5,293 nucleotides of DNA from a virus. Lineage: Duplodnaviria > Heunggongvirae > Uroviricota > Caudoviricetes. Below are positions 1 through 5,293 of the stretch, in pieces; position 1 is the first letter of the stretch; every line of letters starts with the position of its first letter. The stretch is taken from the IMG/VR virus record IMGVR_UViG_2695420658_000009; one strand, given 5' to 3'. The notes under the pieces were generated by a model. It saw nothing but the letters and a program-made list of their open reading frames with translations. It was not told the DNA's origin and made no database searches. The position numbers and the translations under genes were made by a program.

Positions 1-306
1 GAAGGAGTGTCCGTTAAACTCAGGCTACCTCAATTTGCGCTGGGAAGTGGTGCGCAAGTTGCGTCTAGTGGCGATATTTATGGTTCAGTGTGGGAAAACA
101 ACTGGTTAAGCACATGGCTGCATAATCATGTCGTTCGGGATATTCGTCTTGGCAGCATTGAATATAAAAACGTATGGCGCGACTACGGCTTTGGCGATGC
201 GTCAGGTTATGTTTTAACAGCCGCAATTAACAGCAATGCGGATGATATTGTCGACACTGTTGCCAGAAGGCCAATTCAGAAATTGATTGGGGGAATATGG
301 TACAAC
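1..306 (+). CDS. side tail fibre protein, distal C-terminal region (partial: 5' end upstream of window, last codons lost in N-run)
   Basis: Frame 1 is open from base 1; the GTG at 7 is internal, not a real start. The translation ...SGDIYGSVWENNWLSTWLHNHVVRDIRLG...RRPIQKLIGGIWYN parallels the C-terminus of the minus-strand fibre cassette (...RYVRDVRLG...RPIQKLINGTWYNVSQV*). It is followed by a Tfa chaperone gene, the usual fibre-chaperone order. Confidence 0.6.
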
Positions 307-862: not shown

Positions 863-915
863 TGGTCAGCCGTGTGGATACGGCAAATCCTGAATGGCCA
901 CAAAAGCCTGAATAA
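863..915 (+). CDS. tfa: tail fibre assembly chaperone (Mu U / Tfa family), C-terminal 17 codons visible; start lies inside the N-run
   Basis: The visible end ...VSRVDTANPEWPQKPE* (TAA 913-915) matches the C-terminal RVD-x-ANPEWP motif I recall for Mu U-type Tfa proteins. It sits downstream of a fibre gene. Confidence 0.6.
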
Positions 916-920
916 AAATT

Positions 921-940
921 AAGGCCCGATAGCGGGCCTT
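921..940. terminator. bidirectional intrinsic terminator between convergent tfa genes
   Basis: Perfect 8-bp stem aaggcccg / cgggcctt with 4-nt loop atag. On the minus strand it is followed by AATTTTTATT (U-tract), on the plus strand by CTCTCATTCT (weaker). It lies exactly between the plus tfa stop (915) and the minus tfa' stop (967). Confidence 0.5.
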
Positions 941-966
941 CTCTCATTCTGGTTGTTCGGGAAACG

Positions 967-1503
967 TTACTGGCAGGCTGGAGGTGTCTGTGGATTCAAN
1001 NNNNNNNNNNNNNNNNNNNNNNNNNNNNNNNNNNNNNNNNNNNNNNNNNNNNNNNNNNNNNNNNNNNNNNNNNNNNNNNNNNNNNNNNNNNNNNNNNNNN
1101 NNNNNNNNNNNNNNNNNNNNNNNNNNNNNNNNNNNNNNNNNNNNNNNNNNNNNNNNNNNNNNNNNNNNNNNNNNNNNNNNNNNNNNNNNNNNNNNNNNNN
1201 NNNNNNNNNNNNNNNNNNNNNNNNNNNNNNNNNNNNNNNNNNNNNNNNNNNNNNNNNNNNNNNNNNNNNNNNNNNNNNNNNNNNNNNNNNNNNNNNNNNN
1301 NNNNNNNNNNNNNNNNNNNNNNNNNNNNNNNNNNNNNNNNNNNNNNNNNNNNNNNNNNNNNNNNNNNNNNNNNNNNNNNNNNNNNNNNNNNNNNNNNNNN
1401 NNNNNNNNNNNNNNNNNNNNNNNNNNNNNNNNNNNNNNNNNNNNNNNNNNNNNNNNNNNNNNNNNNNNNNNNNNNNTGCGACAATGTTTTTTAAATGCTG
1501 CAT
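967..1503 (-). CDS. tfa: tail fibre assembly chaperone, alternative copy (U'/Tfa'), body masked
   Basis: Minus-strand ATG at 1503-1501 gives MQHLKNIVA..., close to the Mu U N-terminus (MMHLKNI...) as I recall it. The ATG overlaps the stop of the upstream fibre cassette (TAATCATG). Bases 1000-1476 are N; the visible C-terminus is ...LNPQTPPACQ*. Confidence 0.5.
   Translation of the reverse strand: MQHLKNIVAXXXXXXXXXXXXXXXXXXXXXXXXXXXXXXXXXXXXXXXXXXXXXXXXXXXXXXXXXXXXXXXXXXXXXXXXXXXXXXXXXXXXXXXXXXXXXXXXXXXXXXXXXXXXXXXXXXXXXXXXXXXXXXXXXXXXXXXXXXXXXXXXXXXXXXXXXXXXXXXLNPQTPPACQ
1000..1476. other. masked/unresolved bases (477 N)
   Basis: Run of n in the input. Confidence 1.
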
Positions 1504-1505
1504 GA

Positions 1506-2432
1506 TTATACCTGCGATACGTTATACCATGTTCCGTTAATTAACTTTTGTATTGGTCTGAATACTGCCGGATCATCACCATCGACTTCACCGATAATAC
1601 CAAGCCCCGTGATTACATGGCCTGATTTTTCATACATCACGCCTTTCTTCATGGTCTAAACAACTCGTGTGCCAAGTCTGACATCTCTCACATAGCGGGA
1701 ATCAAAGTTACCGTAATCCGAGGGATTAACACGTCCCGTAATATTTATGGTTTTATTACTTTGAATGCTTCCGGAGACAAAGCGCATAACATGGACGTTA
1801 TTAGCATAAACATCCAGATTACCATCGCCTTTTTGTTTAAAGCCCGTGTCATTATCACCCAATACAATCGAATTACCGCCAAGAGCACTGGATGTTCCGA
1901 TACCCAGTGCACCATTCAGTTGACCACCAGATAACGGCAGTGCACCAACATCTCCTGCTGAAGGTTTTCTGGTGGTGTAAAATTCGGACCAGTCGGCTTC
2001 AAAACCATAACCATCACGGGCTGAACGATAAAAAATACCGCCATTTTTATAATTAATCCGAAACTGAGCTGCAGGACAACTTCCTTCTCCCATATAAAAA
2101 TGAATAATTAACGTTGATGCACCACTAATAGTTGCGTTATAGGCTCCGCTACTCCAGTTCCATCCAACTGCTTTATCATTCGCAACGGTGCTTCCTGTTT
2201 TCCCTAAGGCAAACGCACCAACATGACTTGCTTTTAATGTGATATCGGAGGAACCATCAAAAGCCACATTGCTTATTTTCCTGGCAGTTTTTAATTTTGC
2301 AGCTGTAGAAGCATTGCCGGATAGTTCACCAGAAAGGCCACCGCTGAATGTTTGTCGATTAGTCCAGGTATTCGCTGTACTGAGTAACGGTATTTTCTCC
2401 CCGCTTGTGCCGAGTTCTCGTAAACCGAGGTT
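1506..2432 (-). pseudogene. alternative tail fibre C-terminal cassette (S'v-like), promoterless and start-less, with an in-frame amber codon at 1656-1658
   Basis: The minus-strand frame is open from the crossover site (codon NLGLRELGTSGEK... begins at 2432) to TAA at 1506-1508, apart from one TAG at 1656-1658. It contains the fibre-typical glycine-rich motif ...GGNSIVLGDNDTGFKQKGDGNLDVYANN.... The 49 codons after the TAG stay in frame and align with the plus-strand fibre (…RPIQKLINGTWYN vs …RPIQKLIGGIWYN). Confidence 0.6.
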
Positions 2433-2440
2433 TTAGATAA
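2415..2440. other. gix/hix/pix-like site-specific recombination (crossover) site, 12-2-12 architecture
   Basis: TTCTCGTAAACC GA GGTTTTAGATAA differs at about 3 of 26 positions from the gix sequence TTCCTGTAAACCGAGGTTTTGGATAA as I recall it. It lies at the junction between the start-less fibre cassette and the invertase gene, where gixR sits relative to gin in Mu. Confidence 0.6.
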
Positions 2441-2494
2441 TGGCGGTTTCTGGCCTGCATGGCATGATTTGTGCTTTTGGACGGGAGATTCAGC

Positions 2495-2821
2495 GTGCTG
2501 ATTGGCTATGTAAGGGTATCAACAAATGACCAGAATACAGACCTGCAACGAAACGCTCTTGTTTGTGCAGGATATGAACAAATATTTGAAGATAAATTAA
2601 GCGGAACAAGGACAGGCCGACCTGGATTAAAACGTGCTTTAAAGCGCCTTCAAAAAGGTGACGCACTGGTTGTCTGAAAACTGGACTGACTGGGGCACTG
2701 TATGCGGCATCTTGTCGTGCTGGTGGTGGAAGCCTAGAAAAAGTATCGGGTGTTGCTGAACCGTGTTGATACATCAACTGCACCTGATATTGAGTGGCCT
2801 ACGAACCCTGTCAGGGAGTAA
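2495..2821 (+). pseudogene. pin: pin/gin-family serine DNA invertase, N-terminal 60 codons intact, then nonsense codons and an in-frame fusion to the 3' end of a tfa gene
   Basis: GTG at 2495 follows a GGGAGA Shine-Dalgarno (2483-2488). Translation VLIGYVRVSTNDQNTDLQRNALVCAGYEQIFEDKLSGTRTGRPGLKRALKRLQKGDALVV* matches the Pin/Gin N-terminus including the catalytic-serine motif YVRVSTNDQ. In-frame continuation is [45 protein letters not shown]. Stops are at 2675, 2687, 2735 and 2819. The last about 30 codons are a Tfa C-terminus (…[24 protein letters not shown]…), not invertase. Confidence 0.7.
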
Positions 2822-2993
2822 TCATTGGGATTATGCCGCAGCACGTCTTAAGCANCTTAGATGGTAAATGTCTCGCCTGTGCTATATTTTGTTTTTCGGT
2901 TAGTTAAATATCGTACGTTCATATTTGAACGTTCTGCCGGAATGCATTATCAATAGAGGTAAAGTCGCAACCCCAAATCGTAAAGGAAACCGT

Positions 2994-3018
2994 AGCACGT
3001 CTTAAGCAAGAACGTGCT
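2994..3018 (-). terminator. possible intrinsic terminator downstream of the methyltransferase gene
   Basis: Inverted repeat agcacgt (2994-3000) / acgtgct (3012-3018) with an 11-nt loop, 11 nt after the methyltransferase stop. On the minus strand it is followed by the U-rich stretch UUUCCUUUACGAUUU. Stem is short and the U-tract is interrupted. Confidence 0.3.
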
Positions 3019-3029
3019 GCGGTTGGATG

Positions 3030-3848
3030 CTATTTTTTCCCTGAAGCGGAAAACATTACTACAGTACCTTGAACCCTGGTTTTAACATTCTCGAAATGCT
3101 CTGAGAGTATATGTGTTAAGCCTTCTTCGGAATCTTTTGTGTTTGAAAAGATGCCTTTCTGATTGTAAATGCGCATCAGTTTTTGACCGAAGCTATTGTG
3201 CACAACTCCATCGCCAAGAATTGTGGCTCCGTATAGAGTTCCATCGTCAGTTAAGGCCTGCGCCGCATTGCGTATTACACAGCTTTTTGTAGATATATTT
3301 CCAGGCAGGCAGTGAAGAAGGTAAAACATGGAAATGGAATCAAATTGACCATGTAACGCCGCGGGATAAGGTTCAAAAACATCATGGCTAATTTTATGTT
3401 TAATTTTTGATTCCCCAGCCCTTGTAGATGCCGCGTTCAGGCTAGCTTCGTTCAAATCCATTAAAGATATCAGACTACTCTCAGGTACGTGAGTAAGGTA
3501 AAACCCAGTTCCAACACCAATATCCAGATGGTTGTTACCTAAATGTTCCAGAAAGTGTGGAAGAAGGTGTTCCTTTGTAGGACATCCCCATGCAAGCCGA
3601 TTTGATACTCCCAAAACCCACCAGTCATAAAGCTTTAGGGTAAGTGGTGTGTAAATTTTAGCCCCATCATCTGTGTTTNNNNNNNNNNNNNNNNNNNNNN
3701 NNNNNNNNNNNNNNNNNNNNNNNNNNNNNNNNNNNNNNNNNNNNNNNNNNNNNNNNNNNNNNNNNNNNNNNNNNNNNNNNNNNNNNNNNNNNNNNNNNNN
3801 GTATGCTTCGATACAGCAGGAGCCGAATGGCTGGAAGACCGTCACCAC
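3030..3848 (-). CDS. class I SAM-dependent methyltransferase (small-molecule/O-MTase-like; no DNA-MTase motifs seen); N-terminal part partly masked
   Basis: ORF of 272 codons with stop TAG at 3030-3032. It has the SAM-binding motif I HLDIGVGTGFYL followed by an acidic strand end (LISLMDLNE) and a later FDSISMFYLLHCLP segment, the canonical Rossmann-fold MTase order. No (D/N/S)PP(Y/F/W) or PCQ motif is present. The start is uncertain: GTG at 3846-3848 with no clear SD, and bases 3679-3800 are N. Confidence 0.65.
   Translation of the reverse strand: MVTVFQPFGSCCIEAYXXXXXXXXXXXXXXXXXXXXXXXXXXXXXXXXXXXXXXXXXNTDDGAKIYTPLTLKLYDWWVLGVSNRLAWGCPTKEHLLPHFLEHLGNNHLDIGVGTGFYLTHVPESSLISLMDLNEASLNAASTRAGESKIKHKISHDVFEPYPAALHGQFDSISMFYLLHCLPGNISTKSCVIRNAAQALTDDGTLYGATILGDGVVHNSFGQKLMRIYNQKGIFSNTKDSEEGLTHILSEHFENVKTRVQGTVVMFSASGKK
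3679..3800. other. masked/unresolved bases (122 N) inside the methyltransferase 5' region
   Basis: Run of n in the input. Confidence 1.
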
Positions 3849-3879: not shown

Positions 3880-4230
3880 ANNNNNNNNNNNNNNNNNNNN
3901 NNNNNNNNNNNNNNNNNNNNNNNNNNNNNNNNNNNNNNNNNNNNNNNNNNNNNNNNNNNNNNNNNNNNNNNNNNNNNNNNNNNNNNNNNNNNNNNNNNNN
4001 NNNNNNNNNNNNNNNNNNNNNNNNNNNNNNNNNNNNNNNNNNNNNNNNNNNNNNNNNNNNNNNNNNNNNNNNNNNNNNNNNNNNNNNNNNNNNNNNNNNN
4101 NNNNNNNNNNNNNNNNNNNNNNNNNNNNNNNNNNNNNNNNNNNNNNNNNNNNNNNNNNNNNNNNNNNNNNNNNNNNNNNNNNNNNNNNNNNNNNNNNNNN
4201 NNNNNNNNNNNNNNNNNNNNNNNNNNNNNN
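3880..4230. other. masked/unresolved bases (351 N) between the methyltransferase and the Rha-proximal ORF
   Basis: Run of n in the input. All three listed ORFs crossing it are open only because N cannot encode a stop. Confidence 1.
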
Positions 4231-4410
4231 CATGGTTCAATGGTCCGTCTGCCCCCTGTGGTGATGTCAGCAAAATCAGCCACTGCGCGAACCACAATAG
4301 CCCGGGAAGATGCTGAAGATCACCAGGTAAAGCTGTCAGCGCAGAAACTGGAAGAACTGCTCGCATCAATGGTTAAGGATGAGGTTGATCGCAATGATGG
4401 GATTTATTGA
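4231..4410 (+). CDS. hypothetical protein, C-terminal part (start hidden in N-run), ending at TGA 4408-4410; possibly an interrupted longer gene
   Basis: Plus frame 1 is open across all visible sequence with E. coli-like codon choice: ...MSAKSATARTTIAREDAEDHQVKLSAQKLEELLASMVKDEVDRNDGIY*. The same frame stays open for 29 more codons after the TGA, to TAA at 4498-4500. Minus-strand frames in 4296-4536 are broken by stops. Confidence 0.4.
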   Translation, partial: HGSMVRLPPVVMSAKSATARTTIAREDAEDHQVKLSAQKLEELLASMVKDEVDRNDGIY

Positions 4411-4536
4411 CGTCAGCGAGAGCAGAAGGAAGAACTGAATAACCTGAATGATTTACGCTCAATCAGAGCGATGGCGATTAGCGGCAATCACGCTCGATAA
4501 AATTAACCTCGGTGATCATCCGGGGTTTTGCATTCA

Positions 4537-5094
4537 TTAAAACCGCATCAACCTTTCCACCAATTGTTCTTTACGGGCAACGATCCACCCATGTTGCTCC
4601 AGATAAAATTTAAACCGTTCCAGAGTGCATACCATCGCATCGGCGGGGACTTTTTCTGTGAACTCGACCTGACCGTGTTTATCGAAGTGGATCAGTAATG
4701 CGCATCCATTATTTGGGGCGGGGGAGTTTTGTGCTGCAGGAGGACGTTTGTGGAGTTCTTCTTCCATTGCGTTAAATTTTTCAATGTAAGCTTCTTTTAG
4801 TCTGGCTGCTTTTTTGCCAGTAAATCCCATTACGAGGAACATGAAGCCGTCTTTTGTGATCAGGTAGCATCGTGATTCACGTTCTGCGCCGTTGCCAATT
4901 TCGACAGTCTGAACATCGGCCGAAAAGTTGGCTGATGTAAATTCGGGAGAGCAGTCGAGTGTGTCAATCTTAGCTAAAACGTGTTTATGTTGTTTATCGA
5001 AGTAGTCGGCAACAGCTTGAGAGGTGGTAACCAGGCGACCATCTTTGAAAAAGACTTTTGGTGACTCGTTAGAAAAAGTTATAGCTGTATTCAT
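4537..5094 (-). CDS. rha: Rha-family phage regulatory protein (antirepressor-like, Phage_pRha domain)
   Basis: ATG at 5094-5092 is preceded by GGAG with a 9-nt spacer. Translation MNTAITFSNESPKVFFKDGRLVTTSQAVADYFDKQHKHVLAKIDTL...YLITKDGFMFLVMGFTGKKAARLKEAYIEKFNAMEEEL... carries the Rha signature (LxMGFTGKKAxxxKxxYIxxFNxME). Stop TAA at 4537-4539. The TTG at 5109 in the ORF track is unlikely to be the start. Confidence 0.8.
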   Translation of the reverse strand: MNTAITFSNESPKVFFKDGRLVTTSQAVADYFDKQHKHVLAKIDTLDCSPEFTSANFSADVQTVEIGNGAERESRCYLITKDGFMFLVMGFTGKKAARLKEAYIEKFNAMEEELHKRPPAAQNSPAPNNGCALLIHFDKHGQVEFTEKVPADAMVCTLERFKFYLEQHGWIVARKEQLVERLMRF

Positions 5095-5104
5095 ATGTGA
5101 TGAC

Positions 5105-5118
5105 TCCAATTAATTGGA
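5105..5118. promoter_or_regulatory. perfect 14-bp palindrome TCCAATTAATTGGA overlapping the rha ribosome-binding site
   Basis: Exact dyad symmetry. The GGA of the rha Shine-Dalgarno (minus strand) is the last three bases of the palindrome. Candidate operator or SD-sequestering hairpin. Confidence 0.3.
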
Positions 5119-5121
5119 TGA

Positions 5122-5155
5122 TCACCACCTCTGACGCCAATCAGGGAGGTGGTGA
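5122..5155. promoter_or_regulatory. inverted repeat with 10-bp perfect arms in the rha leader/upstream region
   Basis: tcaccacctc (5122-5131) and gaggtggtga (5146-5155) are exact reverse complements separated by 14 nt; an inner tga/tca pair extends the stem. Confidence 0.3.
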
Positions 5156-5254
5156 GACGTACAGGGTTGGCGTAACCGGTCATCACAAAACCCGGCGCGG
5201 ATTTCTCCGCCCCTGCACGCCCCACCATAATGCGAATGTGGCAATGCTTAACGC

Positions 5255-5274
5255 AAAAAAAACCGCAAACGCGG
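5255..5274 (-). terminator. possible intrinsic terminator reading leftward (minus strand) upstream of rha
   Basis: On the minus strand: CCGC-GTTT-GCGG hairpin (plus coordinates 5263-5274) followed immediately by TTTTTTTT (plus 5255-5262). The stem is only 4 bp, so weak. Confidence 0.3.
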
Positions 5275-5293
5275 CTATGCGTTGTGATGTTAT

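Follow-up and report, generated by a model that had tools for sequence, protein, structure and literature searches.

A 26-bp sequence in a viral genome record from IMG/VR (IMGVR_UViG_2695420658_000009; "the window" below means the whole stretch that was analysed, 5,293 nucleotides long) very probably represents the invertase-proximal end of a tail-fibre cassette of the Mu G-segment type in a Phi4-type prophage, one that is flipped in trans in E. coli ST131 and of which the site in the window is an orphan relic. The locus and the idea of inversion in trans are already published for Phi4 of the ST131 strain EC958. Forde et al. described a 3106-bp invertible segment with a truncated invertase, listed its Phi4_3prime and Phi4_5prime sites, and, from the near-identity of the Phi1 and Phi4 sites, proposed action in trans, probably by the Phi1 invertase (Forde et al. 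2014, PLoS One 9:e104400). The evidence from population genomes that Phi4 inverts is an addition to that report. The features of the window are collected in the table.

Table. Features of the window that belong to the crossover site, the invertase remnant and the fibre cassette
Feature	Position	Strand	Details
Terminal 32 nt of an IS600 copy in the distal variable fibre gene	1..32	-	remainder of the IS falls outside the window, to its left
SvA, 3' part of the distal variable tail-fibre gene	33..306	+	ORF end ...RRPIQKLIGGIWYN; 5' end cut off by IS600; runs into a masked stretch
3' end of the tail-fibre assembly gene of SvA	863..915	+	homologue in L008: 187-aa ORF ending ...VSRVDTANPEWPQKPE
SvB, invertase-proximal variable tail-fibre part	1506..2432	-	no start of its own; in-frame TAG 1658-1656; Pfam gp37_C, E = 9.6e-8
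gix-type crossover site	2415..2440	+	23/26 Mu gix; 26/26 EC958 Phi4_3prime; 25/26 EC958 Phi1 invertase-side
Parts of the gix-type site	inner half 2415-2426; core GA 2427-2428; outer (invertase-side) half 2429-2440		
Spacer, site to invertase start codon	2441..2494	+	41/54 identical to Mu, 51/54 to EC958 Phi1
Din-family invertase remnant, ~81 codons	2495..2737	+	TGA 2675-2677, TGA 2687-2689, TAG 2735-2737
Predicted Fis-dependent recombinational enhancer region	2516..2600	.	5' coding part of the invertase gene; by homology
Tail-fibre assembly C-terminal fragment, joined to the invertase remnant where the deletion lies	2738..2821	+	ends ...VDTSTAPDIEWPTNPVRE-stop
135-nt insert	2855-2989		begins with a single N; flanked by 19-nt direct repeats CCGCAGCACGTCTTAAGCA / CCGTAGCACGTCTTAAGCA

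The assignment of the 26-mer as a Gin/Hin-type (Din-family) crossover site is secure. On the plus strand it reads TTCTCGTAAACCGAGGTTTTAGATAA and splits into TTCTCGTAAACC-GA-GGTTTTAGATAA, two 12-bp half-sites around a 2-bp core that agree at 9 of 12 positions once one of them is reverse-complemented, which bears out the imperfect 12-2-12 dyad claimed by the sequence-only reading. That reading had also put the match to gix at about 23 of 26 positions, and the figure turned out to be exact: gixR and gixL of Mu (gixL on the reverse strand) are both TTCCTGTAAACCGAGGTTTTGGATAA in the Mu genome (AF083977), and the window's 26-mer agrees with them at 23 of 26 positions. The site lies at the junction between the constant and variable parts of the tail-fibre frame, shortly before the invertase gene, whose GTG follows 55 nt downstream, and its place beside the invertase, also claimed from the letters alone, is the invertase-proximal end of the segment. 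Its GA core coincides with the G-segment boundary annotated in the Mu record. The site and the 5' region of the invertase share 91-95% identity with 22 Mu-like and P2-like phages.

A short motif of this kind could in principle resemble invertase sites by chance and have nothing to do with them, but we give that explanation virtually no weight. A search for gix at no more than 3 mismatches, a comparison with chance that had been set as a check in advance, returned 1 match in the window and none in 200 dinucleotide shuffles. The flanks are homologous as well, on one side to the variable part of the fibre and on the other to gixR-gin of Mu. Given that window positions 2420-2696 align without gaps to Mu 35017-35293 over 277 nt at 91.3% identity, the gix match is a homologous sequence and not a mere motif.

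The likeness to the Mu G segment extends well beyond the site. Mu and the window share the GA core, the distance from the site to the invertase start, and the order Sv/U ... U'/Sv', and across gixR and gin (which carries the sis enhancer) the first 100 nt of the invertase differ by one base. In the left half of the window stands a mirror-image pair made up of the 3' end of a fibre gene and an assembly gene that ends at 915, and window positions 863-997 are 98.5% identical to the U/U' junction region of Mu; the layout is therefore that of a Mu G segment, with the site at its invertase-proximal end. The differences are that the element in the window is a defective lambdoid prophage, that its invertase is dead and that the variable fibre parts are not those of Mu. 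A GC-rich hairpin, AAGGCCCGATAGCGGGCCTT, lies at 920-946 between the convergent assembly genes and resembles a bidirectional terminator; it falls in the stretch that is 98.5% identical to Mu.

The invertase beside the site is dead, as the sequence-only reading had claimed. The remnant opens at a GTG with MLIGYVRVSTNDQ..., and when it was translated and aligned to Gin, Phi1, PinE and Phi2, its three in-frame stops fell at codon 61 (TGA; Trp in Gin), codon 65 (TGA; Arg in Gin) and approximately codon 81 (TAG), after which the C-terminal half, including the DNA-binding domain, has been deleted. The Pfam Resolvase match is confined to the N-terminal part of the profile (positions 2-69 of 145), and RefSeq labels the remnant "recombinase family protein, missing C-terminus" and the fragment fused to it "tail fiber assembly protein, missing N-terminus". 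No functional invertase adjoins the segment in the window. In comparison with Phi1 of EC958, the site is conserved at 25 of 26 positions and its flanks at 51 of 54 and 193 of 210. The site is thus no better conserved than its surroundings, which suggests a recent death of the invertase, by two point mutations and one deletion; an intact site beside a dead invertase then requires no selection on the site.

The part of the invertase gene that survives is the part in which an enhancer would be expected. The enhancers of Gin, Cin and Hin lie within the 5' ends of their invertase genes, and in the native Hin system the proximal Fis site is about 100 bp from hixL. Window positions 2495-2594, the first 100 nt of the remnant, have a single mismatch to Mu gin. 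Taken together with the Hin spacing and the known enhancer location, this near-identity suggests that the predicted enhancer is probably retained in the remnant. A 15-bp Fis core, GACCAGAATACAGAC at 2528-2542, was considered and dropped, since mapping from the hin enhancer suggests a different register.

On the other side of the site, the minus-strand fibre frame reads I-TAA(2435-2433)-NLGLRELGTSGEK..., with the TAA inside the outer half-site; past the TAA it continues as NLGLRELGTSGEKIPLLSTANTW... and stays open from 2432 down to 1659. The sequence-only reading had noted this stop in the invertase-side half-site and the open frame beyond it, and had suggested that the fibre frame is completed only after strand exchange. 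This too held when the exchange at the core was simulated in silico: the constant part of the fibre came to run in frame into the variable part adjoining the site (...AAVIEYLGLRELGTSGEK...). By analogy with the known systems, a dimer of a Din-family serine invertase would bind the two 12-bp half-sites and, given an inverted partner site and an enhancer, occupied by Fis, within the 5' end of the invertase gene, would cut the GA core and swap the strands, so that either of two alternative 3' parts would follow the constant 5' part of the fibre.

Over most of its length the window shows about 99% identity to a defective lambdoid prophage that adjoins trpA/ompW in E. coli ST131, and comparison with Phi4 of EC958 makes the relationship precise. 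The identity of about 99% covers window positions 1672-2854, 2990-3678 and 4231-5293, and the two loci have in common the whole 26-mer (26/26), the truncated invertase with the same stops, its fusion to the same tfa fragment, and the neighbouring methyltransferase, Rha and ash genes. They differ in that the window has other alleles of the distal fibre and assembly genes and of the C-terminus of SvB (positions 1-1671 have no match), an IS600 in the segment, a CAG-to-TAG change in SvB, and the 135-nt ipaH-associated insert. They differ also in the partner site, which is visible in Phi4 of EC958 and absent from the window. In EC958 the window's 26-mer is found at c1487865-1487890, and the partner, TTATCGAATACC-TC-GGTTTACAGGAA, lies inverted at 1484784-1484809, inside a fibre gene.

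Whether the ST131 site recombines can be read from assembled genomes. The right-hand junction built by in-silico exchange at the core is 1104 nt long and includes the dead invertase and the deletion junction, and it is present in real genomes at 100% identity over its full length. Among 5,426 complete E. coli genomes, the inverted junction was found in 143 (at a coverage of at least 80%) and the junction in the window's state in 239. Four isolates from one patient, 26 core SNPs apart, differ in this respect: U12A is flipped, and U13A, U14A and U15A are not. In-silico inversion of the U13A locus at the core yields a sequence without a single mismatch to the U12A locus over 11,104 nt. Strand exchange thus takes place at the core of the orthologous Phi4 site of ST131, which is identical in sequence to the site in the window, and the U12A/U13A pair and the genomes with the recombinant junction indicate that inversion persists in ST131 although the resident invertase is dead in all of them. 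The consequences reach annotation: U12A has an intact fibre CDS of 941 aa (L034 503-3328), whereas in the window-like state, represented by U13A, the annotation gives this Phi4 gene as a pseudogene without a C-terminus (L035 799-3033), so the annotation of this gene depends on the orientation that was assembled.

Both orientations could also arise without any inversion in trans, either through RecA-dependent recombination between inverted repeats or as a polymorphism older than the death of the invertase. The sites do sit in a short inverted repeat, and the 1-kb stretch common to Phi1 is 97% identical. However, the inverted repeat of Phi4 is 36 bp long with 3 mismatches (Forde et al. 2014, PLoS One 9:e104400), too short for efficient RecA exchange, and the mismatches between half-sites place the exchange within the 26-mer, around the core. 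Isolates from the same patient also differ in orientation at a distance of 26 SNPs, and in EC958 itself a single DNA preparation gave the alternative orientation of Phi4, as a PacBio contig that assembled on its own (Forde et al. 2014, PLoS One 9:e104400). We consider it very improbable that either process accounts for the two orientations.

Inversion in trans accounts for them more readily: with the resident invertase dead and the site still recombining, an invertase of another prophage must act on Phi4 in ST131. The identical site there recombines with its partner 3.08 kb away, and occurrence of the inversion beside the same invertase remnant indicates that what is retained of the remnant suffices in cis. 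We infer the identity of the trans-acting enzyme. EC958 has intact invertases in Phi1 (199 aa) and Phi2 (190 aa), U12A has one of 199 aa in a P2-like prophage, and the crossover sites of Phi1 and Phi4 differ by 1-2 bases. Cross-complementation among Gin, Cin, Pin and Hin is classical. A precedent from experiment is the P segment of e14, a cryptic prophage whose fibre segment is inverted by an invertase encoded in a different prophage, PinQ of Qin (Kirigo et al. 2025, NAR gkaf1041). The parallel has limits, since the e14 pix sites of K-12, whose core is AA, agree with the window's 26-mer at 19-20 of 26 positions, and e14 keeps its own pinE, unlike the window with its dead invertase. The earlier proposal that the switch could be flipped in trans is in this way strongly supported for the ST131 orthologue, with its identical 26-mer and the same dead invertase. 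For the window itself it is probably wrong: the partner was not found there, and IS600 cuts the segment.

The insertion interrupts the cassette at positions 32/33, with the junction CCGTTAAACTCAGGCTACCTCA|ATTTGCGCTGG. The closest sequence to the window is the IMG/VR contig L008, whose identity to the unmasked window is 100% once the 135-nt insert, which it lacks, and 1 mismatch in 2990-3678 are set aside. In L008 the same junction leads into a full IS3-family element with orfA and orfB, labelled by RefSeq "IS3-like element IS600 family transposase", and the junction is also present in L017 and L025. Neither the window's IS600-fibre junction nor the full stretch 1477-3100 occurs in any complete E. 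coli RefSeq genome. A second IS600 copy is found in L008, 4.7 kb further on.

Relatives that lack the IS show what the cassette would have contained. L028 and L021 match the window from position 33 onward and have a partner site about 2.9 kb from the equivalent of the window's site, and in L028 SvA extends upstream to that partner. Across EC958, L028 and L021 the partner lies 2.9-3.1 kb away, inverted, with its core GA on the same strand sense. The window has no GA-core partner site in inverted orientation, and L008 has a single site and no partner in the 10.7 kb that were read of its 21.5-kb contig; the 5 kb beyond its IS hold neither fibre sequence nor a gix-like site. The constant fibre part is likewise absent from the window and from the 10.7 kb of L008. 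Comparison of L008 with L032 shows that synteny is kept on both sides and that other sequence now fills the interval where the constant fibre part and the partner would be expected.

The two variable fibre genes of the window are also damaged, so that it does not contain two intact alternative fibre genes with a constant part. SvA is truncated by IS600, and the full remnant in L008 amounts to 104 aa. SvB carries a CAG-to-TAG mutation: the amber codon at 1656-1658 is TAG in the window, L008, L017, L025 and L028, the position is CAG in L021, L006 and L020, and more distant alleles have CAA. Beyond the TAG, the frame runs for 49 further codons to its normal end (...FRPIQKLINGTWYNVSQV-stop). Distances across the masked parts of the window (N runs at 307-862, 1000-1476, 3679-3800 and 3881-4230) are unreliable, because these runs are longer than the same stretches in L008 (556 vs 491, 477 vs 451, 122 vs 111 and 350 vs 260 nt).

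It could be argued that the switch is nevertheless complete in the window's own genome and still flips in trans, with the partner lying just on the far side of a simple IS600 insertion. In ST131 an identical site flips, the predicted enhancer region has been kept, and L028 and L021, with the same alleles, do have a partner about 2.9 kb off. Moreover, the window ends inside the IS, and L008 lacks the 135-nt insert and was read over 10.7 of its 21.5 kb, so the partner could lie farther off or elsewhere in the chromosome. This reading is unlikely all the same. L008, L017 and L025 share the IS junction, and L008 runs for 5 kb past the IS without fibre or a gix-like site. Even with a partner, neither orientation would yield an intact fibre, since SvA has lost its 5' part to IS600 and SvB carries its TAG.

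Given that the cassette is cut, that the partner is gone in L008 and that the fibre genes are broken, the window's site is most likely an orphan relic. In this lineage IS600 has cut the cassette, the constant part and the partner would have been lost (as they are in the nearest relative), and both remaining variable fibre genes are broken. The orphan site could still bind an invertase, and it would find no local partner and no gene left to switch.

The 135-nt insert bears on the host. It is missing from EC958, L008 and every other related locus, and it is 100% identical to the sequence that separates an ipaH effector gene from the same methyltransferase in the EIEC strain CFSAN029787 and 8 other E. 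coli genomes. Its initial N may stand for an ipaH cassette that was collapsed or masked, or for a join between scaffolds. Together with abundant IS600, this ipaH-associated insert suggests a Shigella/EIEC-like host.

More generally, an inversion switch can lose its recombinase while its cis elements remain in use, served by enzymes of other prophages, as was already reported for the Phi4 locus in 2014. This leads to assembly artefacts and to annotation differences, a fibre gene being called a pseudogene or intact according to orientation, and it would also be relevant if cryptic fibre variants have host functions. Since the site in the window appears to be a relic, its practical value lies mainly in correct annotation. 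It is a long shot that the orphan site with its predicted enhancer serves as a substrate for the invertases of other prophages and pairs with distant GA-core sites, or that invertase-less cassettes of this kind are kept for phage defence. If it were so, the orphan site could drive large inversions or deletions in IS-rich Shigella/EIEC genomes, and invertase-less fibre cassettes could be retained because their trans-flipped cryptic fibre fragments serve in phage defence, as is reported for StfE2 and PinQ; a defence phenotype is shown for the e14 system (Kirigo et al. 2025, NAR gkaf1041), and none is known for the present locus.

Two further similarities were observed within EC958. Window positions 1672-2696 are 96.8% identical over 1 kb to Phi1 (L004 5094-4067), a stretch that takes in the variable part of the fibre, the site and the 5' end of the invertase. 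Phi1 is a P2-like prophage about 530 kb from the lambdoid Phi4, and similarity between the two could permit gene conversion or large rearrangements between prophages. In addition, a second copy of window positions 2724-2854 (the tfa C-terminal fragment), 88% similar, lies about 1 kb downstream in EC958 (L001 9105-9236); it belongs to a part that is masked in the window, in a region with several decayed tfa fragments.
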